DNA from: Escherichia coli
GTDB taxonomy: Bacteria; Pseudomonadota; Gammaproteobacteria; Enterobacterales; Enterobacteriaceae
Direction: 5' to 3' (one strand)
Length of the DNA stretch: 64,000 nucleotides
Assembly: GCF_003790525.1 (NCBI RefSeq)
Contig: NZ_CP033635.1
The notes under the pieces were generated by a model, which was not told the origin of the DNA, did not search any database, and saw nothing but the letters and a program-made list of their open reading frames with translations. Positions 304-53,320 of this stretch are shown here, in pieces; the first letter of the stretch is position 1, and each line of letters opens with the position of its first letter. Both the position numbers and the translations under genes were made by a program.

Positions 304-819
<516 letters not shown>

Positions 820-842
820 TTAGATCAAAGGAGGAAGAATAA

Positions 843-871: not shown

Positions 872-878
872 GGAGGAT

Positions 879-2333: not shown

Positions 2334-2362
2334 TAGAATTGGATAATCCTTATCCAGAGCAT

Positions 2363-6427: not shown

Positions 6428-6846
6428 TTCATTAAATCCGCCAGCTTATAAGTTAATGTCTGTTTCGCGGTCGCCAGCGTTAACTGGTTCGCGGTCAGAT
6501 CCACTTGTGCACCTTCTTTCAGCATTTCGCTAATGGTGTTATCGAGTTCATTAAGCTGCGGGTTAGCGCACATCATACGGGTCATTGCCAGTCCTTTGGC
6601 TGTCAGTTCACCATTAGACAGTTTGCCTTCACCGCTAAAGCGGTTACACATGCTGCCGGAAATCATCATCTTTTCACCAAAGCTGATTTCTGGCGGATTT
6701 TTATCGCTGGTCACGGGCTTACCGTTTACGCTTTCCAGCACAAAGCGATGATGCTGTAGCTGTTCTGGGGTTACAGCAATTTTGTCATTACTTACACATC
6801 CCGCCATCAGCAGGCTTAGCGCAACAAACGCGGCTACTTTCTTCAT
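6424..6846 (-). CDS. hslJ: heat-shock lipoprotein HslJ
   Basis: ORF track 6424..6858; likely start at MKKVAAFVALSLLMAGC (lipobox) giving 140 aa. Confidence 0.85.
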   Translation of the reverse strand: MKKVAAFVALSLLMAGCVSNDKIAVTPEQLQHHRFVLESVNGKPVTSDKNPPEISFGEKMMISGSMCNRFSGEGKLSNGELTAKGLAMTRMMCANPQLNELDNTISEMLKEGAQVDLTANQLTLATAKQTLTYKLADLMN

Positions 6847-6924
6847 TGTGGTTCTCAATTACAGTTTCTGACTCAGGACTATTTTAAGAATAGAGGATGA
6901 AAGGTCTTTGGGGATTATCTGAAT

Positions 6925-6950
6925 AAGCTCCCCTGGAATGCAGGGGAGCG
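6925..6950 (-). terminator. putative terminator hairpin downstream of ldhA
   Basis: Perfect 9-bp stem gctcccctg / caggggagc with 5-nt loop; U-rich stretch follows on the minus strand. Confidence 0.5.
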
Positions 6951-6956
6951 GCAAGA

Positions 6957-7946
6957 TTAAACCAGTTCGTTCGGGCAGGTTTCGCCTTTTTCCAGATTGC
7001 TTAAGTTTTGCAGCGTAGTCTGAGAAATACTGGTCAGTGCTTCTGCTGTCAGGAATGCCTGGTGCCCGGTAAACAGCACGTTGTGGCAGGCAGACAGACG
7101 ACGGAATACGTCATCCTGGATCACGTCGTTGGATTTGTCTTCAAAGAACAGATCGCGTTCGTTCTCATACACGTCCATACCCAACGAACCAATTTTCTGA
7201 TTTTTCAGCGCTTCAATTGCTGCCTGAGAATTAATCAATGCACCGCGACTGGTATTGACGATCATCACGCCATTTTTCATCTGATCGAAGGCGGCTTCGT
7301 TCAACAGATGATAGTTTTCCGGTGTCAGCGGGCAGTGCAGAGAGATAACGTCTGATTCAGAGAACAGGGTTGGCAGATCGACATACTCCACACCGAGTTC
7401 CAGCGCCGCCGCACTTGGATACGGATCGAACGCCAGCAGACGCATACCAAAACCTTTCAGAATGCGCAGCATCGCCACACCGATTTTACCAGTACCGATA
7501 ACGCCTGCCGTTTTGCCATACATAGTAAAGCCGGTCAGACCTTCCAGAGAGAAGTTGGCGTCACGGGTACGCTGATACGCGCGGTGAATACGGCGGTTCA
7601 GCGTCATCATCATACCGATGGCATGTTCAGCAACGGCTTCTGGATCATAGGCTGGAACACGGACTACTTTCAGCCCCAGTTCTTTTGCCGCGTCAAGGTC
7701 GACGTTATTGAAACCGGCACAGCGCAGGGCGATATATTTAACGCCGTGCTTTTTCAGCTCTTCCAGCACCGGGCGGCTGCCGTCATCGTTTACGAAAATA
7801 CATACCGCTTCGCAGCCATTGGCAGTTTTAGCGGTTTTTTCCGTCAGCAGAAAGTCAAAAAATTCCAGCTCAAAGCCAAAGGACTCGTTCACCTGTTGCA
7901 GGTACTTCTTGTCGTACTGTTTTGTGCTATAAACGGCGAGTTTCAT
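6957..7946 (-). CDS. ldhA: fermentative D-lactate dehydrogenase (NAD-dependent)
   Basis: 329-aa ORF starting MKLAVYSTKQYDKKYLQQVNE; 2-hydroxyacid dehydrogenase family with NAD-binding GxGxxG (GTGKIG). Confidence 0.93.
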   Translation of the reverse strand: MKLAVYSTKQYDKKYLQQVNESFGFELEFFDFLLTEKTAKTANGCEAVCIFVNDDGSRPVLEELKKHGVKYIALRCAGFNNVDLDAAKELGLKVVRVPAYDPEAVAEHAIGMMMTLNRRIHRAYQRTRDANFSLEGLTGFTMYGKTAGVIGTGKIGVAMLRILKGFGMRLLAFDPYPSAAALELGVEYVDLPTLFSESDVISLHCPLTPENYHLLNEAAFDQMKNGVMIVNTSRGALINSQAAIEALKNQKIGSLGMDVYENERDLFFEDKSNDVIQDDVFRRLSACHNVLFTGHQAFLTAEALTSISQTTLQNLSNLEKGETCPNELV

Positions 7947-8153
7947 AAGACTTTCTCCAGTGATGTTGAATCACATTTAAGCTACTAAAAATATTTTACA
8001 AAATTTCAAATATAATTGAAAGCTATGGCGATATTGAAAAATTCATCAACAACTATGCTTAGTGTAGGCGCAACCTTCAACTGAACGGTTAAACATGCCA
8101 CAATACCCGTATTGAATGCTTAATTTTTCGCTAAATCAGGATATTAACTACCC

Positions 8154-10793
8154 ATGCTGGGTAAATATAAAGCCGTTCTCGCGCTGTTATTACTGATTAT
8201 TCTTGTGCCGTTGACGCTGCTGATGACGCTCGGGCTGTGGGTTCCTACGCTGGCGGGCATCTGGCTACCGCTCGGGACACGTATTGCATTAGATGAAAGC
8301 CCACGCATTACGCGTAAAGGTTTAATCATTCCCGATCTCCGTTATCTGGTGGGAGATTGTCAGCTTGCGCATATCACCAACGCCAGCCTTTCACATCCCA
8401 GCCGCTGGTTATTGAACGTCGGCACGGTAGAACTTGATTCTGCTTGTCTGGCGAAATTGCCGCAGACGGAGCAATCGCCAGCCGCTCCAAAAACCCTCGC
8501 GCAGTGGCAGGCCATGTTGCCTAACACCTGGATCAATATCGATAAACTGATTTTTTCTCCCTGGCAGGAATGGCAGGGAAAACTCTCTCTCGCATTAACC
8601 TCCGATATCCAGCAACTGCGTTATCAGGGCGAAAAAGTTAAATTTCAAGGCCAGCTGAAAGGGCAACAACTTACAGTCAGCGAACTGGATGTCGTCGCGT
8701 TTGAAAATCAGCCGCCGGTTAAACTGGTGGGGGAATTTACTATGCCGCTCGTGCCGGATGGACTTCCGGTAAGTGGGCATGCTACTGCGACGTTAAACTT
8801 GCCGCAGGAACCGTCACTGGTGGATGCAGAGCTGGACTGGCAGGAAAATAGCGGGCAATTGATCGTGCTGGCACGGGATAACGGCGATCCGTTGCTCGAT
8901 TTGCCGTGGCAAATTACTCGTCAACAATTGACCGTAAGCGATGGTCGCTGGAGCTGGCCGTATGCAGGTTTTCCTTTGAGTGGCCGACTGGGTGTCAAAG
9001 TCGACAACTGGCAGGCAGGGCTCGAGAACGCTCTGGTCAGCGGACGACTGAGTGTGCTGACCCAGGGGCAAGCGGGTAAGGGCAACGCGGTGCTTAATTT
9101 TGGCCCAGGAAAATTAAGCATGGATAACAGCCAGCTGCCTATGCAACTGACCGGTGAAGCGAAACAGGCGGACCTCATTTTATATGCCCGTTTACCTGCG
9201 CAGCTAAGTGGAAGTCTGTCTGACCCAACGTTGACCTTTGAGCCAGGCGCGTTACTTCGTTCAAAGGGAAGAGTCATTGATTCGCTGGACATCGATGAAA
9301 TCCGCTGGCCTTTAGCGGGTGTAAAAGTCACCCAACGTGGTATTGACGGACGTTTGCAGGCCATTTTGCAGGCGCATGAAAATGAACTGGGCGATTTCGT
9401 GCTGCATATGGATGGACTGGCGAATGATTTTCTCCCTGACGCTGGCCGCTGGCAGTGGCGCTACTGGGGAAAAGGCAGTTTTACACCGATGAATGCCACC
9501 TGGGATGTCGCAGGAAAGGGTGAGTGGCATGACAGCACGATTACGCTGACCGATCTCTCCACCGGTTTCGACCAGTTACAATACGGTACGATGACGGTAG
9601 AAAAGCCGCGACTAATTCTCGACAAGCCCGTCGTCTGGGTACGTGACGCACAGCATCCCTCCTTTAGCGGCGCGCTGTCACTGGACGCCGGGCAAACGCT
9701 GTTCACTGGCGGCAGTGTGTTACCGCCATCGACCTTAAAATTTAGCGTCGATGGACGCGATCCGACGTATTTCCTCTTTAAAGGCGATTTACATGCTGGT
9801 GAGATTGGCCCGGTTCGGGTAAATGGTCGCTGGGACGGTATTCGTCTGCGCGGTAACGCCTGGTGGCCTAAACAATCACTGACCGTATTCCAGCCGCTGG
9901 TGCCACCCGACTGGAAGATGAACTTACGCGATGGCGAACTATATGCCCAGGTCGCATTTTCTGCTGCGCCTGAACAAGGATTCCGCGCGGGAGGGCACGG
10001 CGTGTTGAAAGGCGGTAGTGCCTGGATGCCAGATAATCAGGTTAACGGTGTCGATTTTGTCCTGCCTTTCCGTTTTGCCGATGGAGCCTGGCATCTGGGG
10101 ACTCGCGGCCCCGTTACGTTGCGAATTGCCGAAGTGATTAATCTGGTGACAGCGAAAAATATTACGGCTGATTTGCAAGGGCGTTATCCGTGGAGTGAAG
10201 ACGAACCATTGTTGTTGACCGATGTTAGCGTCGATGTGTTAGGCGGTAACGTGCTGATGAAACAATTACGTATGCCGCAACATGACCCGGCGCTGTTGCG
10301 GCTGAATAATCTTTCCTCCAGCGAACTGGTTAGCGCCGTCAATCCGAAACAATTCGCCATGTCCGGGGCATTTAGTGGTGCATTGCCGTTATGGCTAAAC
10401 AACGAAAAATGGATAGTGAAAGATGGTTGGCTGGCAAATAGCGGGCCAATGACCTTGCGGCTGGATAAAGACACCGCAGATGCGGTGGTGAAAGACAATA
10501 TGACTGCGGGTTCAGCAATTAACTGGTTGCGCTATATGGAAATTAGCCGTTCATCGACAAAAATTAATTTAGATAATCTCGGTTTATTAACCATGCAGGC
10601 CAACATTACAGGTACCAGTCGCGTTGATGGTAAAAGCGGTACGGTAAATCTTAATTACCATCATGAAGAGAATATTTTTACGCTGTGGCGCAGTTTACGC
10701 TTTGGCGATAATCTCCAGGCATGGTTGGAGCAGAACGCACGTCTGCCGGGAAATGACTGTCCGCAAGGAAAAGAGTGTGAGGAAAAACAATGA
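8154..10793 (+). CDS. ydbH: AsmA-family inner-membrane-anchored protein (TamB/YhdP paralogue)
   Basis: 879-aa ORF with N-terminal TM anchor (MLGKYKAVLALLLLIILVPLTLLM); 4-nt ATGA overlap with ynbE. Confidence 0.88.
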   Translation: MLGKYKAVLALLLLIILVPLTLLMTLGLWVPTLAGIWLPLGTRIALDESPRITRKGLIIPDLRYLVGDCQLAHITNASLSHPSRWLLNVGTVELDSACLAKLPQTEQSPAAPKTLAQWQAMLPNTWINIDKLIFSPWQEWQGKLSLALTSDIQQLRYQGEKVKFQGQLKGQQLTVSELDVVAFENQPPVKLVGEFTMPLVPDGLPVSGHATATLNLPQEPSLVDAELDWQENSGQLIVLARDNGDPLLDLPWQITRQQLTVSDGRWSWPYAGFPLSGRLGVKVDNWQAGLENALVSGRLSVLTQGQAGKGNAVLNFGPGKLSMDNSQLPMQLTGEAKQADLILYARLPAQLSGSLSDPTLTFEPGALLRSKGRVIDSLDIDEIRWPLAGVKVTQRGIDGRLQAILQAHENELGDFVLHMDGLANDFLPDAGRWQWRYWGKGSFTPMNATWDVAGKGEWHDSTITLTDLSTGFDQLQYGTMTVEKPRLILDKPVVWVRDAQHPSFSGALSLDAGQTLFTGGSVLPPSTLKFSVDGRDPTYFLFKGDLHAGEIGPVRVNGRWDGIRLRGNAWWPKQSLTVFQPLVPPDWKMNLRDGELYAQVAFSAAPEQGFRAGGHGVLKGGSAWMPDNQVNGVDFVLPFRFADGAWHLGTRGPVTLRIAEVINLVTAKNITADLQGRYPWSEDEPLLLTDVSVDVLGGNVLMKQLRMPQHDPALLRLNNLSSSELVSAVNPKQFAMSGAFSGALPLWLNNEKWIVKDGWLANSGPMTLRLDKDTADAVVKDNMTAGSAINWLRYMEISRSSTKINLDNLGLLTMQANITGTSRVDGKSGTVNLNYHHEENIFTLWRSLRFGDNLQAWLEQNARLPGNDCPQGKECEEKQ

Positions 10794-10975
10794 AAATTTT
10801 ACTGGCTGCGTTGACGTCATCTTTTATGCTGGTTGGCTGTACGCCTCGCATTGAAGTCGCTGCCCCTAAGGAACCGATCACTATCAATATGAACGTTAAA
10901 ATTGAGCATGAGATCATCATCAAGGCAGACAAAGATGTCGAAGAGCTGCTTGAGACCCGTAGCGATCTTTTTTGA
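10790..10975 (+). CDS. ynbE: small lipoprotein YnbE
   Basis: 61-aa ORF with lipobox (MLVGCTP); start overlaps the ydbH stop. Confidence 0.85.
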   Translation: MKILLAALTSSFMLVGCTPRIEVAAPKEPITINMNVKIEHEIIIKADKDVEELLETRSDLF

Positions 10976-10979
10976 GGTG

Positions 10980-21324: not shown

Positions 21325-21930
21325 ATGACGCTCTACCAGATAAAACCGCTCTTTCAGTCGCTGTTAAGGCCGACGATGTTTTGGCTTAATAAGCACCATG
21401 TTACAGCGAATCACATCACTCTTGCTGCACTGGCGCTTTCTCTTCTTACCGGATTGCTGTTGATGTTGGTGGCACAACCCATCCTCTTTTTGCTATTGCC
21501 TATCGTGCTTTTTATCCGTATGGCGCTCAATGCGCTGGATGGCATGATGGCGCGTGAGTGCAATCAGCAAACACGTCTTGGGGCGATTTTGAATGAAACT
21601 GGCGATGTTATTTCCGATATTGCGCTTTATTTACCGTTTTTATTTTTACCGGAAAGTAACGCATCACTCGTAATACTCATGTTATTTTGCACCATATTAA
21701 CTGAGTTTTGCGGTTTACTCGCGCAGACGATTAACGGTATTCGCAGTTATGCCGGTCCATTCGGCAAAAGCGATCGTGCGTTAATATTTGGGTTGTGGGG
21801 GCTGGCTGTTGCCATTTATCCACAGTGGATGCAATGGAATAATCTTTTATGGAGCATTGCTTCAATTTTGCTTCTCTGGACTGCGATTAATCGTTGTCGA
21901 AGTGTGCTCCTGATGAGTGCTGAAAGATAA
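21325..21930 (+). CDS. ynbA: CDP-alcohol phosphatidyltransferase-family membrane protein
   Basis: ORF track 21319..21930; start chosen at the MTLYQIKPLF Met to give 201 aa; motif DGMMARE...GDVISD resembles the CDP-alcohol phosphatidyltransferase signature. Confidence 0.8.
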   Translation: MTLYQIKPLFQSLLRPTMFWLNKHHVTANHITLAALALSLLTGLLLMLVAQPILFLLLPIVLFIRMALNALDGMMARECNQQTRLGAILNETGDVISDIALYLPFLFLPESNASLVILMLFCTILTEFCGLLAQTINGIRSYAGPFGKSDRALIFGLWGLAVAIYPQWMQWNNLLWSIASILLLWTAINRCRSVLLMSAER

Positions 21931-22826
21931 TGCTGGAAAAATCTCTGGCAACACTTTTCGCGTTGTTAATTTTAGCAACGCTGATAAACCGTTTTCTGAT
22001 ATGGCGGTTACCGGAGGGAAAAGGGGGTGAGGTTACATTACGTATTCGTACCTGGTGGGGCATCGTCATTTGTTTTTCAATGGTGATTTCAGGTCCACGC
22101 TGGATGACGTTGACGTTTTTTGCGCTGATAAGTTTTCTGGCATTGAAAGAATATTGTACGCTTATATCCGTACATTTTCCGCGTTGGTTATATTGGGGTA
22201 TTCCTCTTAACTATTTGCTTATCGGTTTTAATTGCTTTGAGCTGTTTCTGTTATTTATACCTTTGGCTGGGTTTCTGATATTAGCCACCTGGCGAGTTTT
22301 AGTGGGTGACCCCTCTGGTTTTCTGCATACCGTGAGTGCCATTTTTTGTGGCTGGATAATGACCGTTTTCGCCTTGAGTCATGCCGCCTGGTTATTAATG
22401 TTGCCAACCACAAATATCCAGGGCGGGGCGTTACTGGTGTTATTTCTTTTGGCGTTAACCGAGTCAAACGATATTGCACAGTATTTATGGGGAAAATCCT
22501 GCGGCAGAAGAAAAGTGGTCCCCAAAGTCAGCCCGGGAAAAACACTGGAAGGTCTGATGGGCGGCGTAATCACCACCATGATAGCGTCGATGATCATTGG
22601 ACCGTTATTGACACCCTTAAACGCCTGGCAGGCATTATTGGCGGGGTTACTGATTGGGGTAAGTGGTTTTTGCGGCGATGTAGTGATGTCAGCCATCAAA
22701 CGAGATATTGGTGTTAAAGATAGTGGAAAACTATTACCAGGACATGGCGGACTCCTTGACAGGATTGACTCATTAATTTTCACCGCTCCGGTATTTTTTT
22801 ATTTTATTCGCTACTGCTGTTACTGA
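21930..22826 (+). CDS. ynbB: CdsA-like phosphatidate cytidylyltransferase-family membrane protein
   Basis: 298-aa polytopic ORF; start overlaps the ynbA stop (TAATG); C-terminal region resembles CdsA. Confidence 0.8.
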   Translation: MLEKSLATLFALLILATLINRFLIWRLPEGKGGEVTLRIRTWWGIVICFSMVISGPRWMTLTFFALISFLALKEYCTLISVHFPRWLYWGIPLNYLLIGFNCFELFLLFIPLAGFLILATWRVLVGDPSGFLHTVSAIFCGWIMTVFALSHAAWLLMLPTTNIQGGALLVLFLLALTESNDIAQYLWGKSCGRRKVVPKVSPGKTLEGLMGGVITTMIASMIIGPLLTPLNAWQALLAGLLIGVSGFCGDVVMSAIKRDIGVKDSGKLLPGHGGLLDRIDSLIFTAPVFFYFIRYCCY

Positions 22827-22841
22827 AGGAAAATAGAGAAA

Positions 22842-25905
<3,064 letters not shown>

Positions 25906-25958
25906 GCGGATTGAGATGTGGACTGAATATCTACAGTCCACATCAAAATAGTGTCCGG

Positions 25959-26573
<615 letters not shown>

Positions 26574-26764
26574 TTATAGATGTTTGAATGGGCGATGCCC
26601 CGTTGCTTGTTGACACTTTATTCACAATCCTGCCACAGAGATAGCGCAATAAATCGAAGCCTATGTTCGAATTTATTGAACAACGCATAGAAAGCCGCGA
26701 TGTGGTACTCTACATCTATCATTTAAAAGAAAATTAATCAGGCAGCCTACTGCCCACTAACGTT

Positions 26765-29700
26765 ATGACAGAACAACAAAAATTGACCTTTACGGCCTTG
26801 CAGCAACGGTTGGATTCGCTGATGCTGCGTGACAGACTGCGTTTTTCCCGCCGTCTGCACGGCGTGAAGAAGGTTAAAAATCCTGATGCACAACAGGCCA
26901 TTTTCCAGGAGATGGCGAAAGAGATTGACCAGGCGGCAGGGAAAGTCCTGCTGCGTGAAGCAGTACGACCGGAAATCACTTATCCAGACAATTTGCCGGT
27001 TAGTCAGAAAAAGCAGGACATTCTCGAAGCAATCCGTGATCACCAGGTGGTGATCGTCGCCGGGGAAACGGGTTCCGGTAAAACGACTCAGCTACCGAAA
27101 ATCTGTATGGAACTGGGCCGCGGGATTAAAGGGCTGATCGGCCATACCCAGCCGCGTCGTCTGGCGGCACGAACGGTGGCGAACCGTATTGCGGAAGAGC
27201 TGAAAACGGAGCCGGGCGGTTGCATCGGGTATAAAGTGCGTTTCAGCGATCACGTAAGTGATAACACGATGGTCAAGCTGATGACCGACGGTATCCTGCT
27301 GGCGGAGATCCAGCAAGACCGCCTGCTGATGCAGTACGACACTATCATTATTGACGAAGCGCACGAACGCAGCCTGAATATCGATTTTCTGCTCGGCTAT
27401 TTGAAAGAGTTGCTGCCGCGGCGTCCTGACTTAAAAATCATTATCACTTCCGCGACTATCGACCCGGAACGCTTTTCGCGCCACTTTAATAATGCGCCGA
27501 TTATCGAAGTCTCCGGTCGGACCTATCCGGTGGAAGTGCGCTATCGCCCGATCGTTGAAGAAGCTGATGACACCGAGCGCGATCAGTTGCAGGCGATTTT
27601 TGACGCCGTAGACGAACTGAGCCAGGAAAGCCCTGGCGACATTCTGATCTTTATGAGCGGTGAGCGGGAAATTCGCGATACCGCCGATGCGCTGAACAAG
27701 CTAAATCTGCGGCATACCGAAATCTTGCCGCTTTATGCGCGGCTTTCGAACAGCGAACAGAACCGCGTGTTCCAGTCGCACAGTGGACGGCGCATTGTGC
27801 TGGCGACCAACGTCGCGGAAACCTCGCTGACCGTACCGGGTATTAAATACGTTATCGACCCCGGTACAGCGCGTATCAGCCGCTACAGCTATCGCACCAA
27901 AGTGCAGCGTTTGCCGATTGAGCCCATTTCGCAGGCTTCAGCTAATCAGCGTAAAGGCCGCTGTGGTCGTGTGTCCGAAGGGATCTGTATTCGTCTCTAT
28001 TCCGAAGACGATTTCCTTTCGCGCCCGGAATTTACCGATCCGGAGATTCTGCGTACCAACCTGGCCTCGGTTATTTTGCAGATGACTGCGCTGGGGCTGG
28101 GCGATATCGCTGCGTTCCCGTTTGTTGAAGCACCGGATAAACGCAATATCCAGGATGGCGTGCGTCTGCTCGAAGAACTGGGCGCGATCACCACGGATGA
28201 ACAGGCCAGCGCCTATAAACTGACGCCGCTCGGTCGCCAGCTTTCGCAATTGCCTGTCGATCCTCGTCTGGCGCGTATGGTGCTGGAAGCGCAGAAACAT
28301 GGCTGCGTGCGTGAGGCGATGATTATCACGTCCGCGCTCTCCATTCAGGATCCGCGCGAGCGTCCGATGGATAAACAGCAGGCATCGGACGAAAAACATC
28401 GTCGCTTCCACGACAAAGAATCCGACTTCCTCGCGTTTGTAAATCTGTGGAATTATCTTGGCGAGCAGCAAAAGGCGCTTTCTTCCAACGCCTTCCGTCG
28501 CCTGTGTCGTACCGATTATCTCAACTATCTGCGCGTGCGCGAATGGCAGGATATCTACACCCAGTTGCGTCAGGTAGTGAAAGAACTTGGCATTCCGGTT
28601 AACAGCGAACCGGCGGAGTATCGCGAAATTCACATCGCCTTACTGACCGGTTTGCTTTCCCATATCGGCATGAAAGATGCCGATAAACAAGAATATACCG
28701 GCGCACGTAACGCGCGTTTCTCCATTTTCCCCGGTTCCGGCTTATTTAAAAAGCCGCCGAAATGGGTAATGGTGGCGGAACTGGTAGAAACCAGCCGCCT
28801 GTGGGGGCGCATTGCTGCGCGTATCGACCCGGAATGGGTAGAACCCGTTGCTCAGCATTTGATTAAACGCACCTACAGCGAACCGCACTGGGAACGGGCG
28901 CAGGGCGCGGTGATGGCAACGGAAAAAGTCACTGTTTATGGTTTGCCGATTGTTGCTGCGCGCAAGGTCAACTACAGCCAGATCGATCCGGCGTTATGTC
29001 GTGAACTCTTTATTCGCCACGCTCTGGTGGAAGGTGACTGGCAGACGCGTCACGCATTCTTCCGTGAAAACCTGAAACTGCGGGCCGAAGTGGAAGAGCT
29101 GGAACACAAATCACGTCGCCGCGATATTCTGGTTGATGACGAAACGTTGTTTGAGTTCTACGACCAGCGCATCCGCCACGATGTAATCTCCGCTCGTCAC
29201 TTCGATAGCTGGTGGAAAAAAGTCAGCCGCGAAACGCCTGATTTGCTCAACTTTGAAAAGAGCATGTTGATCAAAGAAGGGGCGGAAAAAATCAGCAAGC
29301 TGGATTATCCGAACTTCTGGCATCAGGGCAATCTCAAGCTGCGTTTGAGCTATCAGTTTGAGCCCGGCGCGGATGCTGACGGTGTGACTGTGCATATCCC
29401 GCTGCCGCGGCTTAATCAGGTAGAAGAGAGCGGGTTTGAATGGCAAATCCCCGGCCTGCGCCGCGAACTGGTGATTGCTCTGATTAAATCGTTGCCGAAA
29501 CCGGTACGCCGTAATTTTGTACCTGCGCCAAACTATGCCGAAGCGTTTTTAGGCCGCGTCAAACCGCTGGAGTTACCGTTGCTCGACAGTCTTGAGCGCG
29601 AGTTACGGCGGATGACCGGTGTTACCGTTGACCGCGAAGACTGGCACTGGGATCAGGTGCCTGATCACCTGAAAATCACCTTCCGCGTGGTGGATGACAA

Positions 29701-30667
29701 AAACAAGAAGCTAAAAGAAGGGCGCTCATTACAGGATCTGAAAGATGCGCTGAAAGGCAAAGTGCAGGAAACGCTGTCTGCGGTGGCGGATGACGGTATC
29801 GAGCAGAGCGGCTTACATATCTGGAGTTTTGGTCAGCTGCCGGAAAGCTACGAACAGAAGCGTGGCAACTATAAAGTGAAGGCGTGGCCAGCGCTGGTGG
29901 ATGAACGCGACAGTGTGGCAATCAAATTGTTTGATAATCCGCTGGAACAAAAGCAGGCAATGTGGAACGGTCTTCGCCGTCTACTGCTGCTGAATATTCC
30001 ATCGCCGATCAAATATTTGCATGAAAAGTTACCGAACAAAGCCAAGCTGGGGCTGTACTTTAACCCGTATGGCAAAGTGCTGGAGCTGATCGACGACTGT
30101 ATCTCCTGCGGGGTGGATCAACTGATCGACGCCAATGGTGGCCCGGTCTGGACGGAAGAAGGCTTTGCTGCGCTGCATGAAAAAGTCCGTGCTGAACTGA
30201 ACGACACGGTGGTGGATATTGCGAAGCAGGTCGAGCAAATCCTCACTGCGGTGTTCAATATCAATAAACGTCTGAAAGGGCGGGTGGATATGACTATGGC
30301 GCTGGGGCTTTCTGACATTAAAGCGCAGATGGGCGGGTTGGTATATCGCGGTTTTGTCACTGGTAACGGCTTCAAACGGTTGGGCGACACGCTGCGTTAT
30401 TTGCAGGCGATTGAAAAACGACTGGAAAAACTGGCGGTTGATCCGCATCGTGACCGTGCTCAGATGCTGAAAGTCGAAAACGTCCAGCAGGCGTGGCAGC
30501 AATGGATCAACAAACTGCCGCCCGCACGTCGTGAGGATGAAGACGTGAAAGAGATCCGTTGGATGATAGAAGAGTTGCGCGTTAGTTACTTCGCTCAACA
30601 ACTTGGTACGCCTTATCCGATTTCAGATAAGCGTATTTTGCAGGCGATGGAGCAGATTAGCGGTTAA
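26765..30667 (+). CDS. hrpA: ATP-dependent DEAH-box RNA helicase HrpA
   Basis: 1300-aa ORF; Walker A GETGSGKTTQLP and DEAH box (IIIDEAHERS). Confidence 0.95.
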   Translation: MTEQQKLTFTALQQRLDSLMLRDRLRFSRRLHGVKKVKNPDAQQAIFQEMAKEIDQAAGKVLLREAVRPEITYPDNLPVSQKKQDILEAIRDHQVVIVAGETGSGKTTQLPKICMELGRGIKGLIGHTQPRRLAARTVANRIAEELKTEPGGCIGYKVRFSDHVSDNTMVKLMTDGILLAEIQQDRLLMQYDTIIIDEAHERSLNIDFLLGYLKELLPRRPDLKIIITSATIDPERFSRHFNNAPIIEVSGRTYPVEVRYRPIVEEADDTERDQLQAIFDAVDELSQESPGDILIFMSGEREIRDTADALNKLNLRHTEILPLYARLSNSEQNRVFQSHSGRRIVLATNVAETSLTVPGIKYVIDPGTARISRYSYRTKVQRLPIEPISQASANQRKGRCGRVSEGICIRLYSEDDFLSRPEFTDPEILRTNLASVILQMTALGLGDIAAFPFVEAPDKRNIQDGVRLLEELGAITTDEQASAYKLTPLGRQLSQLPVDPRLARMVLEAQKHGCVREAMIITSALSIQDPRERPMDKQQASDEKHRRFHDKESDFLAFVNLWNYLGEQQKALSSNAFRRLCRTDYLNYLRVREWQDIYTQLRQVVKELGIPVNSEPAEYREIHIALLTGLLSHIGMKDADKQEYTGARNARFSIFPGSGLFKKPPKWVMVAELVETSRLWGRIAARIDPEWVEPVAQHLIKRTYSEPHWERAQGAVMATEKVTVYGLPIVAARKVNYSQIDPALCRELFIRHALVEGDWQTRHAFFRENLKLRAEVEELEHKSRRRDILVDDETLFEFYDQRIRHDVISARHFDSWWKKVSRETPDLLNFEKSMLIKEGAEKISKLDYPNFWHQGNLKLRLSYQFEPGADADGVTVHIPLPRLNQVEESGFEWQIPGLRRELVIALIKSLPKPVRRNFVPAPNYAEAFLGRVKPLELPLLDSLERELRRMTGVTVDREDWHWDQVPDHLKITFRVVDDKNKKLKEGRSLQDLKDALKGKVQETLSAVADDGIEQSGLHIWSFGQLPESYEQKRGNYKVKAWPALVDERDSVAIKLFDNPLEQKQAMWNGLRRLLLLNIPSPIKYLHEKLPNKAKLGLYFNPYGKVLELIDDCISCGVDQLIDANGGPVWTEEGFAALHEKVRAELNDTVVDIAKQVEQILTAVFNINKRLKGRVDMTMALGLSDIKAQMGGLVYRGFVTGNGFKRLGDTLRYLQAIEKRLEKLAVDPHRDRAQMLKVENVQQAWQQWINKLPPARREDEDVKEIRWMIEELRVSYFAQQLGTPYPISDKRILQAMEQISG

Positions 30668-30693
30668 CACTGCTATTTGCCTGATAAATCTAA

Positions 30694-30726
30694 AACCCGG
30701 TAAGCATTTAGCGCCGGGTTTTTTAT
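30694..30726 (+). terminator. intrinsic terminator of hrpA
   Basis: cccgg...ccggg hairpin followed by TTTTTT about 25 nt after the hrpA stop. Confidence 0.7.
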
Positions 30727-30939
30727 TAATTCTAAAAACGGTATGGGAAAAAATTCAGGAGTTCAGAAAAATACAATTCTCTGCTGCAAGATGAATAATG
30801 TTTATCTACAGCATTTCCTTAAAAGATATGTCAGGCTTGCGGAGTGGTAGTTAAGGAAATACGACTTCCTCCTTTCAGAGTGCTCCGCTTCTCACTATTA
30901 TCTCACGCAGTATTCTTAAGGGAACGATAAGGAGGAACC

Positions 30940-31740
30940 ATGAACATTACCCCGTTTCCGACGCTTTCGCCGGCAACCATAGATGCCATAAATGTTATCG
31001 GTCAGTGGCTGGCGCAGGATGATTTCTCCGGTGAGGTGCCGTATCAGGCCGATTGCGTGATCCTTGCAGGCAATGCGGTTATGCCGACTATCGATGCGGC
31101 ATGTAAGATTGCCCGCGATCAGCAAATTCCTTTACTGATTAGTGGTGGTATCGGTCACTCGACAACTTTTTTGTATAGCGCCATCGCACAGCATCCGCAC
31201 TACAACACTATCCGCACCACTGGCAGAGCTGAAGCTACCATCCTGGCGGATATCGCTCATCAGTTCTGGCACATTCCGCATGAAAAAATCTGGATTGAAG
31301 ACCAGTCAACAAACTGCGGTGAAAACGCACGCTTTAGCATCGCGCTATTGAATCAGGCCGTAGAACGAGTTCACACAGCTATCGTTGTTCAGGACCCCAC
31401 CATGCAGCGGCGCACGATGGCGACGTTCCGCCGTATGACCGGGGACAATCCCGATGCACCACGCTGGTTAAGTTATCCCGGATTCGTTCCTCAGTTAGGA
31501 AATAACGCAGACAGTGTAATCTTTATTAATCAGTTACAAGGATTATGGCCGGTTGAGCGTTATCTATCACTACTCACTGGCGAGCTGCCGCGTTTACACG
31601 ATGATAGCGATGGCTACGGTCCCCGCGGGCGAGATTTTATCGTTCACGTTGATTTTCCGGCAGAAGTCATCCAGGCATGGCAAACGCTGAAACACGATGC
31701 GGTGCTCATCGAGGCGATGGAAAGTCGCTCGTTACGTTAA
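30940..31740 (+). CDS. ydcF: DUF218-family protein
   Basis: 266-aa ORF starting [24 protein letters not shown]; position after hrpA as in K-12. Confidence 0.85.
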
Positions 31741-31936
31741 AAATTGCCCGTTTGTGAACCACTTGTTTGCAAACGGGCATAACTCCTGCCTTTTATTTCT
31801 GCCTCTTATTCCTTTTACACTTGTTTTTATGAAGCCCTTCACAGAATTGTCCTTTCATGATGCCGTCTCTCTGATGATTGATGTTAATTAACAATGTATT
31901 TACTAAAAACAAACATATAAATCACAGGAGTCGCTC

Positions 31937-33376
31937 ATGTCAGTACCCGTTCAACATCCTATGTATATTGATGGACAGTTTGTTACCTGGCGTGGAGACG
32001 CATGGATTGATGTGGTAAACCCTGCAACAGAGGCTGTCATTTCCCGCATTCCCGATGGTCAGGCCGAGGATGTCCGTAAGGCAATCGATGCAGCAGAACG
32101 TGCACAACCAGAATGGGAAGCGTTGCCTGCTATTGAACGCGCCAGTTGGTTGCGCAAAATCTCCGCCGGGATCCGCAAACGCGCCAGCGAAATCAGTGCG
32201 CTGATTGTTGAAGAAGGGGGCAAGATCCAGCAGCTGGCTGAAGTCGAAGTGGCTTTTACTGCGGACTATATCGATTACATGGCGGAGTGGGCACGGCGTT
32301 ATGAAGGCGAGATTATTCAAAGCGATCGTCCAGGAGAAAATATTCTTCTGTTTAAACGTGCGCTTGGCGTGACTACCGGCATTCTGCCGTGGAACTTCCC
32401 GTTCTTCCTCATTGCCCGCAAAATGGCCCCCGCTCTTTTGACCGGTAATACCATCGTCATTAAACCCAGTGAATTTACGCCAAACAATGCGATTGCATTC
32501 GCCAAAATTGTCGATGAAATAGGCCTTCCGCGCGGCGTGTTTAACCTTGTTCTGGGGCGTGGTGAAACCGTTGGGCAAGAACTGGCGGGTAACCCAAAGG
32601 TCGCAATGGTCAGTATGACAGGCAGCGTCTCTGCAGGTGAAAAGATTATGGCGACTGCGGCGAAAAACATCACCAAAGTGTGCCTGGAATTGGGGGGTAA
32701 AGCACCGGCTATCGTAATGGACGATGCCGATCTTGAACTGGCAGTCAAAGCCATCGTTGATTCACGCGTTATTAATAGTGGGCAAGTGTGTAACTGTGCA
32801 GAACGTGTTTATGTACAGAAAGGCATTTATGATCAGTTTGTCAATCGGCTGGGTGAAGCGTTGCAGGCGGTTCAATTTGGTAACCCCGCTGAACGCAACG
32901 ACATTGCGATGGGGCCGTTGATTAACGCCGCGGCGCTGGAAAGGGTCGAGCAAAAAGTGGCGCGCGCAGTAGAAGAAGGGGCGAGAGTGGCGTTGGGTGG
33001 CAAAGCGGTAGAGGGGAAAGGATATTATTATCCGCCGACATTGCTGCTGGATGTTCGCCAGGAAATGTCGATTATGCATGAGGAAACCTTTGGCCCGGTT
33101 CTGCCGGTGGTCGCATTTGATACGCTGGAAGAGGCTATCTCAATGGCGAATGATAGTGATTACGGCCTGACCTCATCAATCTATACCCAAAATCTGAACG
33201 TCGCGATGAAAGCCATTAACGGGCTGAAGTTTGGTGAAACTTACATCAACCGTGAAAACTTCGAAGCTATGCAAGGCTTCCACGCCGGATGGCGTAAATC
33301 TGGTATTGGCGGCGCAGATGGTAAACATGGCCTGCATGAATATCTGCAGACCCAGGTGGTTTATTTACAGTCTTAA
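31937..33376 (+). CDS. aldA: lactaldehyde dehydrogenase (NAD-dependent aldehyde dehydrogenase A)
   Basis: 479-aa ORF; aldehyde dehydrogenase family with catalytic Cys in QVCNCAERV. Confidence 0.93.
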   Translation: MSVPVQHPMYIDGQFVTWRGDAWIDVVNPATEAVISRIPDGQAEDVRKAIDAAERAQPEWEALPAIERASWLRKISAGIRKRASEISALIVEEGGKIQQLAEVEVAFTADYIDYMAEWARRYEGEIIQSDRPGENILLFKRALGVTTGILPWNFPFFLIARKMAPALLTGNTIVIKPSEFTPNNAIAFAKIVDEIGLPRGVFNLVLGRGETVGQELAGNPKVAMVSMTGSVSAGEKIMATAAKNITKVCLELGGKAPAIVMDDADLELAVKAIVDSRVINSGQVCNCAERVYVQKGIYDQFVNRLGEALQAVQFGNPAERNDIAMGPLINAAALERVEQKVARAVEEGARVALGGKAVEGKGYYYPPTLLLDVRQEMSIMHEETFGPVLPVVAFDTLEEAISMANDSDYGLTSSIYTQNLNVAMKAINGLKFGETYINRENFEAMQGFHAGWRKSGIGGADGKHGLHEYLQTQVVYLQS

Positions 33377-33386
33377 TGAGTGGAAG

Positions 33387-33409
33387 AGGCGGAGGTTTTT
33401 CCTCCGCCT
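33387..33409. terminator. hairpin between convergent aldA and gapC (possible bidirectional terminator)
   Basis: Perfect inverted repeat aggcggagg ttttt cctccgcct in the 40-nt gap between the two stop codons; no external U-run. Confidence 0.5.
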
Positions 33410-33416
33410 GTGTGCG

Positions 33417-34418
33417 TCAGAGTTTAGCGAATTTTTCGAGGGTGCGAATGAGCTGTGTGACGAAGCCATATTCGTTATCGTACCAGGCGACCGTTTTCAC
33501 CAGTTGTAAATCGCCCACGGCGGTAATTTCCGTTTGCGTGGCATCAAACACCGAACCGAAATGGCTGCCAATGATATCGGAAGAGACTATTTCTTCATCG
33601 GTATAACCAAATGACTCGTTATTGGTGGTTGCTTGTTTAAGTGCGTTATTCACCTCTTCGGCAGTCACTTTTTTTCCGAGAATGGACACCAGCTCAGTGA
33701 CCGAACCTGTTTTCACCGGCACGCGTTGCGCATGACCTTTCAGTTTGCCGCTCAGTTCCGGGATCACCAGACCAATGGCTTTTGCCGCACCTGTAGTGTG
33801 GGGAATGATATTTTCTGCCGCTGCACGTGAAGCGCGTAGATCTTTACCTCGCGGACCATCCACCAGTGACTGAGTGCCGGTATAGGCATGAATGGTCGTC
33901 ATCGTGCCGACTTCTATTCCGAAACTGTCGTGCAAGGCTTTGGCCATCGGTGCAAGACAGTTAGTGGTGCATGACGCCACGGAAACAATGGTGTCGTTGC
34001 CATCCAGTGTGTCGTCATTGACGTTATAAACGATGGTTTTCATTTCACCGGCAGGGGCGGAAATCAACACCTTCTTCGCACCAGCATCAAGGTGCGCCTG
34101 CGATTTCTCGGCGGAGGTATAAAAGCCAGTACATTCGACAATGATTTCTGCGCCTTTCGCTTTCCATGGAATATTTTTAGCCTCTTTTTCGGCGTAAACC
34201 GCGATACTTTTTCCATCAACGATAAGTGAATCTTCCGTAAAATCAACGCTCCAGGGGAACGGTCCGTAGTTTGAATCATGTTTCAACAGGTAGGCGAGAA
34301 TTTTTGGGGAAGTGAGATCATTAATAGCAACAATGTCTATGTTGCTTTTGACTTCAAGTAATCGACGCAACACCAGTCGACCGATACGACCAAAACCGTT
34401 AATACCAACTTTACTCAT
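33417..34418 (-). CDS. gapC: glyceraldehyde-3-phosphate dehydrogenase paralogue, intact ORF
   Basis: 333-aa uninterrupted ORF; NAD-binding [10 protein letters not shown] and active-site SCTTNCLAP present. Confidence 0.88.
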
Positions 34419-34606
34419 GGTCTTCTCCTGTCAGGAACGTTCGGATGAAAATTGATCCTTTCCAGGCTTAGACCAGGATGGCGGGATGGGCAATCTACAT
34501 TCTTGCCGTGAAACGTAACGTACTGAAAACGGGTGAACAATATTTAATGAAATTTTAAGAAAAGCTCGTTATGTTAACGGAAAATTATGTTAAAGCAGGA
34601 AATGTT

Positions 34607-35137
34607 ATGGAAAGTAAATATTCAAGGTTACAAATCGGCATTCACTGGCTGGTCTTTTTGCTGGTTATCGCAGCGTATTGCGCAATGGAGTTTCGTGGTT
34701 TTTTCCCACGTGGCGATAGGCCGCTTATCAACATGATTCATGTTTCCTGTGGCATCTCAATTCTCGTGCTGATGGTTGTTCGTCTTTTGTTAAGGCTTAA
34801 ATACCCAACTCCGCCGATTGTACCTAAACCAAAACCGATGATGACGGGACTGGCGCATTTGGGACATTTGGTGATCTATCTCCTGTTTATTGCGCTGCCA
34901 GTGATTGGTTTGGTGATGATGTATAACCGGGGCAACCCGTGGTCTGCGTTTGGTATGACAATGCCTTATGCAGCAGAGGCCAATTTCGAACGGGTTGATA
35001 GCTTAAAGTGGTGGCATGAGACGCTGGCGAATCTGGGATATTTTGTCATCGGGTTGCACGCTGCGGCTGCACTGGCACACCACTATTTCTGGAAGGACAA
35101 CACACTTCTACGCATGATGCCGCGTAAACGTTCCTGA
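34607..35137 (+). CDS. cybB: cytochrome b561 (superoxide oxidase)
   Basis: ORF track 34571..35137; start chosen at MESKYSRLQIGIHW to give 176 aa; polytopic with conserved His residues. Confidence 0.85.
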   Translation: MESKYSRLQIGIHWLVFLLVIAAYCAMEFRGFFPRGDRPLINMIHVSCGISILVLMVVRLLLRLKYPTPPIVPKPKPMMTGLAHLGHLVIYLLFIALPVIGLVMMYNRGNPWSAFGMTMPYAAEANFERVDSLKWWHETLANLGYFVIGLHAAAALAHHYFWKDNTLLRMMPRKRS

Positions 35138-35146
35138 AGGATATTT

Positions 35147-35211
35147 AAAGAAAACGCCTGTACTAAAACCGACCCGTGGTACAGGCGAAGAATACGGGTC
35201 TACATCGGAAG
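35147..35211 (-). ncRNA. rydC: RydC small RNA
   Basis: Reverse complement reads cttccgatgtagacccgtattcttcgcctgtaccacgggtcggttttagtacaggcgttttctt, matching RydC as I remember it; lies in the cybB–ydcA intergenic region. Confidence 0.75.
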
Positions 35212-35381
35212 CGCCTATTATATTTATTTGTATGACAAATAAAACCATAATCCTGGTCCATACGTCCATCTGGCTTATCTTTAATCAATTCACCCGATCT
35301 TTGATCTCATCAACGGTATCAAAATAAACCAGCGTATAACGTTCAAATCGAACATAAGATTCGATAAACCATGGAGGTTAT

Positions 35382-35555
35382 ATGAAAAAACTGGCACTTA
35401 TCTTGGTTATAGGAGCGCTTGTTTCCTTTTATGCCGATGCCGGGCGCAAACCCTGTTCTGGTTCGAAAGGGGGGATCTCACACTGTACGGCAGGCGGCAA
35501 ATTTGTCTGTAATGATGGTTCTATTAGTGCATCGAAAAAAACATGCACTAACTGA
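35382..35555 (+). CDS. ydcA: small secreted protein YdcA
   Basis: 57-codon ORF MKKLALILVIGALVSFYADAGRKPCSGSKGG...SKKTCTN with good RBS (ggagg); below the 60-aa track threshold. Confidence 0.8.
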   Translation: MKKLALILVIGALVSFYADAGRKPCSGSKGGISHCTAGGKFVCNDGSISASKKTCTN

Positions 35556-35627
35556 AGTGTAAAAGGGGTGCCATGAGAAAATGAATCTGCTAGTCAGATG
35601 CGCGGGGAAAATCCCCGCGCTTGCCCT

Positions 35628-35860
<233 letters not shown>

Positions 35861-36174
35861 TGGTCGGGGCCTTCGTCTTTCTGATTCCCGGTTAGCCTGA
35901 AAACAGAAAGTCTCAGGCACCCGTGAGCATCCTATGTGGTTTCCTTAAGGACGAAAATAATCACCTGACGAAATTGCGTGCTGTTTTCCAGAATTTTTCG
36001 TCATTCGGTTTAGCCAGTTTAATCATTCGTTACTCTCTTCATTCCAATGGCATTATTCTTCTCTGCCATAATTGTTGTAAAAATGTGACGCAAAGAGGTT
36101 TTTGGTCGTAAGAAATTACCGTCAAGTGCCGATGACTTTCTATCAGGAGTAAACCTGGAAGAGAGACAACGGTA

Positions 36175-37815
36175 ATGAATACAACTCCCTCACAGCGATT
36201 AGGTTTTTTGCATCACATCAGGCTGGTTCCGTTATTTGCCTGCATTCTTGGCGGTATCTTAGTTCTATTCGCATTAAGTTCTGCTCTGGCTGGCTATTTC
36301 CTCTGGCAGGCCGATCGCGATCAGCGTGATGTTACTGCGGAGATTGAGATTCGGACCGGGTTAGCGAACAGTTCAGATTTTTTGCGTTCAGCCCGGATCA
36401 ATATGATTCAGGCCGGGGCAGCGAGTCGTATTGCGGAAATGGAAGCAATGAAGCGAAATATTGCGCAAGCCGAATCGGAGATTAAACAGTCGCAGCAAGG
36501 TTATCGTGCTTATCAGAATCGACCGGTGAAAACACCTGCTGATGAAGCCCTCGACACTGAATTAAATCAACGCTTCCAGGCTTATATCACGGGTATGCAA
36601 CCGATGTTGAAATATGCCAAAAATGGCATGTTTGAAGCGATTATCAATCATGAAAGTGAGCAGATCCGACCGCTGGATAATGCTTATACCGATATTTTGA
36701 ACAAAGCCGTTAAGATACGTAGCACCAGAGCCAACCAACTGGCGGAACTGGCCCATCAGCGCACCCGCCTGGGTGGGATGTTCATGATTGGCGCGTTTGT
36801 GCTTGCCCTGGTGATGACGCTGATAACATTTATGGTGCTACGTCGGATCGTCATTCGTCCACTGCAAAATGCCGCACAACGGATTGAAAAAATCGCCAGT
36901 GGCGATCTGACGATGAATGATGAACCGGCGGGTCGTAATGAAATCGGTCGCTTAAGTCGTCATTTACAGCAAATGCAGCATTCACTGGGGATGACTGTAG
37001 GGACCGTTCGACAGGGCGCGGAAGAGATTTATCGTGGCACCAGCGAAATTTCAGCTGGCAATGCGGACCTGTCATCTCGCACCGAAGAACAAGCGGCGGC
37101 TATCGAACAAACTGCCGCCAGCATGGAGCAACTCACTGCGACGGTGAAACAGAATGCGGATAACGCGCATCATGCCAGCAAACTGGCGCAGGAGGCTTCT
37201 ATTAAAGCCAGCGATGGCGGGCAGATGGTTTCCGGTGTAGTAAAAACGATGGGCGCTATCTCCACGAGTTCGAAGAAAATTTCTGAGATCACCGCCGTCA
37301 TCAACAGTATTGCTTTCCAGACGAATATTCTGGCACTGAATGCTGCCGTTGAAGCCGCGCGAGCGGGTGAGCAAGGACGTGGATTTGCCGTTGTCGCCAG
37401 CGAAGTACGGACACTCGCAAGCCGCAGCGCTCAGGCGGCGAAAGAGATTGAAGGCTTGATCAGTGAATCAGTCAGGTTAATTGACCTGGGGTCGGATGAG
37501 GTGGCAACGGCAGGGAAAACCATGAGCACTATTGTTGATGCCGTCGCGAGTGTCACACATATCATGCAGGAAATCGCCGCCGCCTCGGATGAACAAAGTA
37601 GAGGCATAACGCAGGTTAGCCAGGCGATTTCTGAAATGGATAAGGTGACGCAACAGAATGCTTCTCTGGTAGAAGAGGCCTCAGCGGCGGCGGTGTCCCT
37701 TGAAGAACAGGCGGCACGATTAACTGAGGCGGTGGACGTATTCCGTCTGAACAAACATTCTGTGTCGGCAGAACCTCGCGGAGCGGGTGAACCAGTTAGT
37801 TTCGCTACGGTGTGA
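36175..37815 (+). CDS. trg: methyl-accepting chemotaxis protein III (ribose/galactose sensor)
   Basis: 546-aa ORF; two TM segments, HAMP, and conserved MCP signalling domain. Confidence 0.93.
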
Positions 37816-47156: not shown

Positions 47157-47168
47157 CTGCAACGGCAG
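47157..47168. repeat. left copy of 12-bp target-site duplication CTGCAACGGCAG
   Basis: Identical 12-mer directly abuts both IS4 ends. Confidence 0.85.
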
Positions 47169-48593
47169 TAATGCCGATCAGTTAAGGATCAGTTGACCGA
47201 TCCAGTGGCTGTGTAAGAATCCGGAAACGCTCACTTGTTTCCGGATTTTTTATGCACATTGGACAGGCTCTTGATCTGGTATCCCGTTACGATTCTCTGC
47301 GTAACCCACTGACTTCTCTGGGGGATTACCTCGACCCCGAACTCATCTCTCGTTGCCTTGCCGAATCAGGTACTGTAACGCTACGCAAGCGCCGTCTTCC
47401 CCTCGAAATGATGGTCTGGTGTATTGTTGGCATGGCGCTTGAGCGTAAAGAACCTCTTCACCAGATTGTGAATCGCCTGGACATCATGCTGCCGGGCAAT
47501 CGCCCCTTCGTTGCCCCCAGTGCCGTTATTCAGGCCCGCCAGCGCCTGGGAAGTGAGGCTGTCCGCCGCGTGTTCACGAAAACAGCGCAGCTCTGGCATA
47601 ACGCCACGCCGCATCCGCACTGGTGCGGCCTGACCCTGCTGGCCATCGATGGTGTGTTCTGGCGCACACCGGATACACCAGAGAACGATGCAGCCTTCCC
47701 CCGCCAGACACATGCCGGGAACCCGGCGCTCTACCCGCAGGTCAAAATGGTCTGCCAGATGGAACTGACCAGCCATCTGCTGACGGCTGCAGCCTTCGGC
47801 ACGATGAAGAACAGCGAAAATGAGCTTGCTGAGCAACTTATAGAACAAACCGGCGATAACACTCTGACGTTAATGGATAAAGGTTATTACTCACTGGGAC
47901 TGTTAAATGCCTGGAGCCTGGCGGGAGAACACCGCCACTGGATGATACCTCTCAGAAAGGGAGCGCAATATGAAGAGATCAGAAAACTGGGTAAAGGCGA
48001 TCATCTGGTGAAGCTGAAAACCAGCCCGCAGGCACGAAAAAAGTGGCCGGGACTGGGAAATGAAGTGACAGCCCGCCTGCTGACCGTGACGCGCAAAGGA
48101 AAAGTCTGCCATCTGCTGACGTCGATGACGGACGCCATGCGCTTCCCCGGAGGAGAAATGGCGGATCTGTACAGTCATCGCTGGGAAATCGAACTGGGAT
48201 ACAGGGAGATAAAACAGACGATGCAACTGAGCAGGCTGACGCTGAGAAGTAAAAAACCGGAGCTTGTGGAGCAAGAGCTGTGGGGTGTCTTACTGGCTTA
48301 TAATCTGGTGAGATATCAGATGATTAAAATGGCAGAACATCTGAAAGGTTACTGGCCGAATCAACTGAGTTTCTCAGAATCATGTGGAATGGTGATGAGA
48401 ATGCTGATGACATTGCAGGGCGCTTCACCGGGACGTATACCGGAGCTGATGCGCGATCTTGCAAGTATGGGACAACTTGTGAAATTACCGACAAGAAGGG
48501 AAAGGGCCTTCCCGAGAGTGGTAAAGGAGAGGCCCTGGAAATACCCCACAGCCCCGAAAAAGAGCCAGTCAGTTGCTTAACTGACTGGCATTA
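47169..48593 (+). mobile_element. insertion sequence IS4 (about 1425 bp)
   Basis: Imperfect 18-bp terminal inverted repeats (TAATGCCGATCAGTTAAG left; TAATGCCAGTCAGTTAAG at right, reverse-complemented), a single 442-aa transposase ORF, and flanking 12-bp direct repeats. Confidence 0.92.
47252..48580 (+). CDS. insG: IS4 transposase (DDE family)
   Basis: 442-aa ORF starting [35 protein letters not shown]; contains the IS4-family YREIK motif ([14 protein letters not shown]). Confidence 0.92.
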
Positions 48594-48605
48594 CTGCAAC
48601 GGCAG
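48594..48605. repeat. right copy of 12-bp target-site duplication CTGCAACGGCAG
   Basis: Identical to 47157..47168. Confidence 0.85.
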
Positions 48606-52681: not shown

Positions 52682-52858
52682 GTGAAACAAAGCGAGTTCA
52701 GACGTTGGCTCGAATCTCAGGGCGTCGATGTAGCGAATGGCAGCAACCATTTAAAACTGAGGTTTCATGGGAGGCGCAGTGTCATGCCGCGTCACCCCTG
52801 CGATGAGATTAAAGAACCATTGCGTAAAGCAATCCTGAAACAACTCGGTTTGAGTTAA
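52682..52858 (+). CDS. hicA: type II toxin HicA (mRNA interferase)
   Basis: GTG-initiated 58-codon ORF MKQSEFRRWLESQGVDVANGSNHLKLRFHGRRSVMPRHPCDEIKEPLRKAILKQLGLS, immediately upstream of hicB; below the track threshold. Confidence 0.8.
   Translation: MKQSEFRRWLESQGVDVANGSNHLKLRFHGRRSVMPRHPCDEIKEPLRKAILKQLGLS

Positions 52859-52882: not shown

Positions 52883-53320
<438 letters not shown>

Follow-up and report, generated by a model that had tools for sequence, protein, structure and literature searches.

Introduction

The genome of Escherichia coli K-12 holds gapC as a pseudogene, and MG1655 indeed annotates it in this way (gapC b4493, 1001 bp), as an initial annotation of the DNA studied here had stated. 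The locus therefore raises the question of whether a strain in which the reading frame is whole has a second working glyceraldehyde-3-phosphate dehydrogenase (GAPDH) besides GapA, and of how such a strain compares with the rest of the species. The DNA was a stretch of 64,000 nucleotides from the E. coli contig NZ_CP033635.1, here called the window, meaning the whole stretch at its full length. Our main reading, to which we assign a probability of about 0.9, is that the reading frame in question is an intact gapC that would encode a working NAD-dependent phosphorylating GAPDH (EC 1.2.1.12) in addition to GapA, as judged from its sequence.

The first gapC sequence came from Hidalgo et al. 1996, as cited in PMC10614358, and the gene serves as an E. 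coli qPCR marker (PMC10614358). In a table of CpxR targets it was entered merely as a pseudogene (PMC9600279), while PMC5610209 contains no statement on E. coli gapC, the 'GAPC' of that article being the plant cytosolic enzyme. Intact GapC is itself already known, from natural isolates in 1998, from UniProt entry P58072, from the RefSeq name, and from crystals of 2020-2021; an intact gapC is thus the common, published state in E. coli, and its finding in the window is correct but ordinary. What is added here is only a description of the K-12 allele as three mutational events, and a count of that allele in nature.

The gapC reading frame and its neighbors

An uninterrupted frame of 333 codons had been claimed for this locus, and it was borne out on the minus strand, with a single terminal stop. 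The features to which the text refers are listed below with their window coordinates and strand.

33417..34418, minus strand: gapC coding sequence, with ATG start, 333 codons and one terminal stop (open reading frame listing)
34377..34406, minus strand: Rossmann-fold dinucleotide-binding motif, codons 5-14, including Arg11 and Ile12 (translation)
33948..33974, minus strand: SCTTNCLAP active-site motif, codons 149-157 (translation and GapA alignment)
33969..33971, minus strand: codon of the catalytic Cys150, within SCTTNCLAP
33888..33890, minus strand: codon of the catalytic His177 (residue check on the translation)
34302..34304, minus strand: codon 39, AAA (Lys) in the window and a TAA stop in K-12 (lesion 1)
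33669..33675, minus strand: A7 run, gene nucleotides 744-750, codons Gly248-Lys249-Lys250; A6 in K-12 (lesion 2)
34425..34429, minus strand: Shine-Dalgarno sequence AGGAG, 6 nt 5' of the gapC ATG (read directly)
34419..34606, no strand: divergent intergenic region between gapC and cybB, 188 nt, expected to contain the gapC promoter
33387..33409, no strand: GC-rich hairpin with a 9-bp stem and a 5-nt loop, between the convergent aldA and gapC stops
31937..33376, plus strand: aldA (aldehyde dehydrogenase A), the convergent neighbor
34607..35137, plus strand: cybB (cytochrome b561 / superoxide oxidase), the divergent neighbor

The identity of the gene as gapC, also part of the initial annotation, was confirmed by its position between aldA and cybB and by its nucleotide identity to E. 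coli gapC loci. The aldA-gapC-cybB placement, with gapC convergent with aldA, was also seen in 14 of 14 sampled loci (the sample is described below), and the order beyond cybB, namely RydC, ydcA, hokB/sok and trg, is that found around gapC b4493 in K-12. The GC content of gapC is 47.9% (0.45-0.51 in local windows), with no clear contrast to its neighbors; thus, the composition is neutral on the published label of 'laterally acquired'.

The hairpin between the aldA and gapC stops has a computed stability of -18.2 kcal/mol and a z-score of -4.8, and none of 200 shuffles reached equal stability. It is kept in K-12, where its loop is 6 nt as against 5 nt in the window. A terminator scan did not report it, since no proper T-run follows the hairpin on either strand; on its folding energy, it is a candidate two-way terminator.

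Assignment of the protein to the type I GAPDH family

The translated protein scored 446.7 bits on TIGR01534, the type I GAPDH model, for which the curated cut-off is 367.2, and the match covered residues 3-325 of the protein and profile positions 1-330 of 330. Both Pfam domains were found, namely PF00044 (Gp_dh_N; 122.7 bits, residues 3-102) and PF02800 (Gp_dh_C; 195.2 bits, residues 155-313). The protein is exactly RefSeq WP_000048646.1, a type I GAPDH, which falls in a cluster at 90% identity with 4797 members, a Citrobacter freundii sequence among them.

It had been noted initially that the NAD-binding motif and SCTTNCLAP are kept, and both are indeed present, at residues 5-14 and 149-157, respectively. 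The GxGxxG signature reads G8-F-G10-R-I-G13, and Asp34, the usual NAD-specificity residue, and Ser120 are in place. The Ps site (Thr180, Thr182, Arg232) and the new Pi site (Ser149, Thr151, Thr209, Gly210) are each complete. Overall, the window protein keeps all 15 residues to which PMC8615399 assigns a part in catalysis or in the binding of phosphate or NAD: Arg11, Ile12, Asp34, Lys78, Ser120, Ser149, Cys150, Thr151, His177, Thr180, Thr182, His207, Thr209, Gly210 and Arg232.

Compared with GapA (b1779), the window protein has the same fold and reaction, an identical active-site block and an identical motif at residues 5-14, and the two share His177, Thr180, Thr182, Thr209, Gly210, Arg232 and Asp34; nonetheless, they are only 48% identical. 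Neither a premature stop or frameshift nor the loss of a catalytic residue relative to GapA was seen in the window gene, and no sequence feature that contradicts enzymatic competence was found in the protein. Membership in the GapA type itself was rejected on the 48% identity to K-12 GapA and on a score of 301.9 bits, below the cut-off of 662, on PRK15425, which we take to be the model of GapA-type GAPDH. In a structure search, the best 60 matches included 3K73 at 408 bits and 1GD1 at 307 bits, and no E. coli GapA entry was recognized among the 60. These two structures are the GAPDHs of S. aureus and B. stearothermophilus, respectively (PMC8615399). The window protein thus scores higher on the S. 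aureus enzyme (408 bits) than on PRK15425 (301.9 bits), an order that agrees with the textbook view of GapA as an unusual, eukaryote-like enzyme (PMC5610209).

The family scores also bear on the notion that the protein is intact but has shifted in function, to an Epd/GapB-like erythrose-4-phosphate (E4P) dehydrogenase, an NADP-using gluconeogenic enzyme, or the GAPDH of an ArsJ-coupled arsenate-resistance system. E. coli already has one diverged GAPDH paralogue, epd, and the Epd/GapB proteins of gamma-proteobacteria have the superfamily and the domain pair in common with GapC. GapC is not a member of that group, however, as it scored 276.5 bits against a cut-off of 530.55 and 279.8 bits against 539 on the two E4P-dehydrogenase models (TIGR01532 / PRK13535). 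The ArsJ-associated model NF033735 was likewise rejected at 307.3 bits (cut-off 450), and the neighbors of the gene are aldA and cybB, not arsJ. It is to be noted that gapC-1 and gapC-2 have been grouped with gluconeogenic or putative gluconeogenic genes (PMC2759082), but the presence of Asp34, the NAD contained in the crystals of the near-identical enzyme, and the published kinetics of its V29 variant on glyceraldehyde 3-phosphate (G3P) (PMC8615399) all speak against a shift, which we regard as very improbable.

Relation to a crystallized and kinetically characterized enzyme

The structure search retrieved the PDB 7C5F series, 14 entries comprising wild type, C150A, C150S, H177A and a double mutant, in which the protein is identical to window GapC at 332 of 333 residues. 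The sole difference is Ile29 in the window as against Val29 in the 7C5F protein. Val29 is the commoner residue in E. coli GapC, the change is conservative, and Ile at position 29 is also found in GapA. E. coli GapC, which is UniProt P58072 for O157:H7 (as cited in PMC10614358) and the 'EcGAPDH1' of the 7C5F series, is thus the gene found in the window, with its locus and all functional residues in common.

The V29 enzyme catalyzes NAD-linked oxidation of G3P; at 50 C and pH 10, its KM was 0.73 mM and its turnover very high (PMC8615399). Its activity was abolished in C150A and in C150A+H177A, and was lowered roughly 8000-fold in H177A and 38,000-fold in C150S (PMC8615399). Crystal complexes were obtained with NAD, phosphate, G3P, the thioacyl intermediate and 1,3-BPG, and the NAD contacts include Arg11 and Ile12 (PMC8615399). 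From the V29 variant, we infer that the I29 allele of the window would also reduce NAD+ in dependence on G3P and phosphate. A potentially functional second GAPDH, as first proposed for this strain, is thereby supported, and the original wording appears too cautious, given that an active variant differing only by I29V is on record.

The reaction in the window enzyme would follow the course seen for the V29 variant. Cys150, activated by His177, would attack the aldehyde of G3P, the C3 phosphate of which would be held in the Ps site by Thr180, Thr182 and Arg232. Hydride would then pass to NAD+, bound through the motif at residues 5-14, Asp34 and Ser120, to give a thioacyl enzyme, and phosphate at the new Pi site (Ser149, Thr151, Thr209) would cleave the thioester to release 1,3-bisphosphoglycerate.

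Census of gapC in complete genomes and selection on the protein

By megablast, 5417 of the 5426 complete E. coli genomes contain the gapC locus, and 5409 have it at full length, defined as at least 80% coverage; the latter were 96-100% identical, and every matching record was at least 90% identical. The window gene is a minority haplotype at the DNA level, as only 87 of the 5417 matching records were at least 99% identical to it. By comparison, gapA was present in 5425 of the 5426 genomes, and at 99% identity or more in 5424, whereas most gapC alleles lie at 95-99%. Since gapA is nearly universal, GapC is an additional, second enzyme. A few matches in the complete genomes carried plasmid labels (5 for gapC and 2 for gapA), and these are probably mislabeled replicons or large chromosomal segments on plasmids.

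For a closer view, 39 full-length matches were sampled at even spacing down the megablast ranking, of which 32 cover 1002 bp and the other 7 cover 1001 or 1000 bp. All 12 of the 1002-bp alleles that were fetched are annotated as intact and translate cleanly, while both fetched shorter alleles are annotated 'frameshifted; internal stop'. When the window gene is taken together with these 12, third positions account for 72 of the 83 segregating sites; mean dS is 0.113, with values up to 0.16, and mean dN 0.0038, for a ratio of 0.033. As an individual example, the allele of strain Nord1 differs from that of the window by 27 synonymous changes and no non-synonymous change. The dN/dS of 0.033 shows strong purifying selection on the GapC protein.

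These alleles also address whether the intactness of the window gene could be an artefact, either of assembly at the A7 homopolymer or of a chance reading frame. Some sequencing chemistries are prone to errors in homopolymers, and an extra 1-bp deletion in one long-read assembly of the sample (L016) is possibly such an error. Against this, the 1002-bp gene is 100% identical in the independent complete genomes of strains 2016C-3878 and SMS-3-5, the exact protein is present on at least 1000 contigs, and the A7 state was seen in all 12 sampled intact alleles, so that we give an artefact hardly any credence.

The K-12 allele

The initial annotation had proposed alignment to K-12 gapC as the way to find the K-12 lesion, and this alignment did locate the lesions: A115T, which turns Lys39 from AAA to TAA, and the loss of 1 bp in the A7 run. 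K-12 gapC (b4493; formerly gapC_1/gapC_2) lies at the same locus with the same flanks and is 97% identical in nucleotides to the window gene, from which it differs by 28 substitutions and one deletion. Compared with the nearest intact allele sampled, that of strain LD39-1 (L005), it differs by three events only. The first is C52G, giving R18G; the second is A115T, the Lys39 stop; and the third removes one A of the A7 run, so that the frame changes after Lys249-Lys250. None of the three is synonymous, and C52G and A115T are the sole sites that separate K-12 from all 13 intact alleles. With a gap of three events and no synonymous change among them, K-12 gapC has descended only very recently from a common working allele. 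The idea that the K-12 flanking haplotype is always frameshifted was ruled out, since the LD39-1 allele has that flank together with an intact A7.

The two states were then counted in the 5426 complete genomes with allele queries in which every 28-mer seed spans the diagnostic site. The TAA39 allele of K-12 was found in 1155 genomes and the AAA39 allele in 3717; genomes matched by neither codon-39 query probably have nearby SNPs that break the seeds. The K-12 A6 haplotype was found in 1050 of the 5426, and the lack of matches to the corresponding A7 query for the K-12 flank is most probably due to low-complexity masking of A7 but not of A6. Taken together, gapC appears intact in roughly 79-82% of complete genomes and of the K-12 type in about 21%.

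The sources of the K-12-type matches listed include humans, pigs, cattle, poultry, beach water, sediment and soil, and the gapC of a Korean chicken isolate equals that of MG1655 base for base. Laboratory strains have been said to 'accumulate mutations in gapC' (PMC2949598); because wild isolates carry the K-12 lesions, these lesions are not laboratory artefacts, and the wild K-12-type alleles refine that statement. With about 21% of genomes, wild ones included, having an inactivated gapC, the gene must also be dispensable in some niches at least.

Expression and probable role

An intact reading frame may still be effectively silent, in which case gapC in the window would be cryptic, would contribute nothing to the cell at present, and would be heading for the pseudogene state that K-12 has reached. 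Several observations lean in this direction. A promoter scan of 33300..34650 returned one weak sigma-70-like site on the minus strand, against 1.9 expected by chance. The codon adaptation (CAI) of gapC is average at 0.317, close to aldA (0.336) and ydcF (0.303) and far from gapA (0.835); with the weights used, after Sharp and Li 1987, only the large contrast between gapA and gapC is trustworthy. Moreover, about one-fifth of complete genomes do without the reading frame and are apparently unpenalized, wild isolates among them. On the other hand, the dN/dS of 0.033 over 13 divergent intact alleles requires selection on the protein, and the 12 full-length alleles sampled were all intact. The translation signal and the upstream region are also conserved, in that the Shine-Dalgarno sequence is identical in K-12 and in 14 of 14 sampled alleles, and the 188-nt region between gapC and cybB differs from that of K-12 by 8 substitutions and no indel. 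Finally, an active, environment-responsive promoter has been reported even in K-12 (PMC2949598, PMC2759082). On balance, we consider silence of the gene unlikely and retain the reading that it encodes a working enzyme.

As to when the enzyme is made, the study of Espinosa-Urgel and Kolter 1998, as cited in PMC2949598 and PMC1796617, found gapC intact in environmental isolates, with preferential expression in fresh water. In K-12, the gapC fragments are transcribed, and their transcription goes up in slow-growing PTS-minus strains and down on rpoS inactivation (PMC2759082). In view of these published data and of the ordinary codon usage, GapC would be a low-level or conditional isozyme (RpoS-dependent, under carbon limitation, in fresh water) and not the main glycolytic enzyme.

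Other features of the window

Positions 1..37708 of the window align to E. coli SMS-3-5 (NC_010498.1) at 99.989% identity, with 3 mismatches and 1 gap, which places the window in the SMS-3-5 lineage or a very close relative of it. In strain 2016C-3878, gapC is identical to that of the window but the flanks are only 96.7-99.7% identical, a pattern of sequence identity that suggests a recombination mosaic around the gapC locus.

Between ydbL and pdxI lies an intact autotransporter reading frame of 1984 amino acids (11764..17718, plus strand), which was full length in 174 of the 5426 complete genomes; on the BigA adhesin model it scored 1911.5 bits, below the cut-off of 3400. The site lacks any paa, tynA or fea cluster. 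The ydbL-pdxI interval would be the place at which K-12 has ydbA, an IS-disrupted pseudogene; if so, the autotransporter joins gapC as a gene that is interrupted in K-12 but complete in the window.

An IS4-family element of about 1.43 kb (47157..48605) splits ydcO, which encodes a BenE-family transporter. Inverted repeats of 22 nt form the ends of the element, a 12-bp target-site duplication, CTGCAACGGCAG, accompanies it, and its transposase frame (47252..48580, 442 amino acids) scored 304.5 bits on NF033592. Two frames on the plus strand, 52682..52858 (58 amino acids) and 52883..53320 (145 amino acids), are presumably an intact hicA-hicB toxin-antitoxin pair, going by their position, their sizes and the K-12 layout; at that place, a HicB antitoxin remnant is all that is annotated in 2016C-3878.

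Three small RNAs scored above the Rfam gathering score, namely MicC (2222..2342, plus strand), RydC just 3' of cybB (35148..35211, minus strand), and sok, the antitoxin RNA at hokB (35771..35922, minus strand). An IS150 lies between hokB and trg in 2016C-3878 and is absent from that place in the window.

Significance

The strain of the window has two working GAPDH genes, gapA and, on the sequence comparisons given above, in all likelihood gapC, as is normal for E. coli. It follows that metabolic models and gapA knock-out designs based on K-12 do not transfer automatically to strains with intact gapC.

More broadly, gapC could be seen as a natural functional polymorphism of E. coli and not as a gene lost in laboratory domestication, a proposal we make tentatively and would place somewhat below even odds. 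Under this proposal, most lineages would keep a strongly constrained, conditional second GAPDH, while one recently inactivated haplotype (R18G, K39stop, A7>A6) has spread to about one-fifth of sequenced strains, with K-12 among them, and is in circulation in humans, livestock, water and soil. The lesions shared between K-12 and these strains correct the common assumption that gapC decayed in laboratory culture, which is a refinement and not a discovery. If intact GapC is advantageous outside the host, which is putative, the gapC locus would serve as a marker and a test case for adaptation of E. coli to its secondary habitat.
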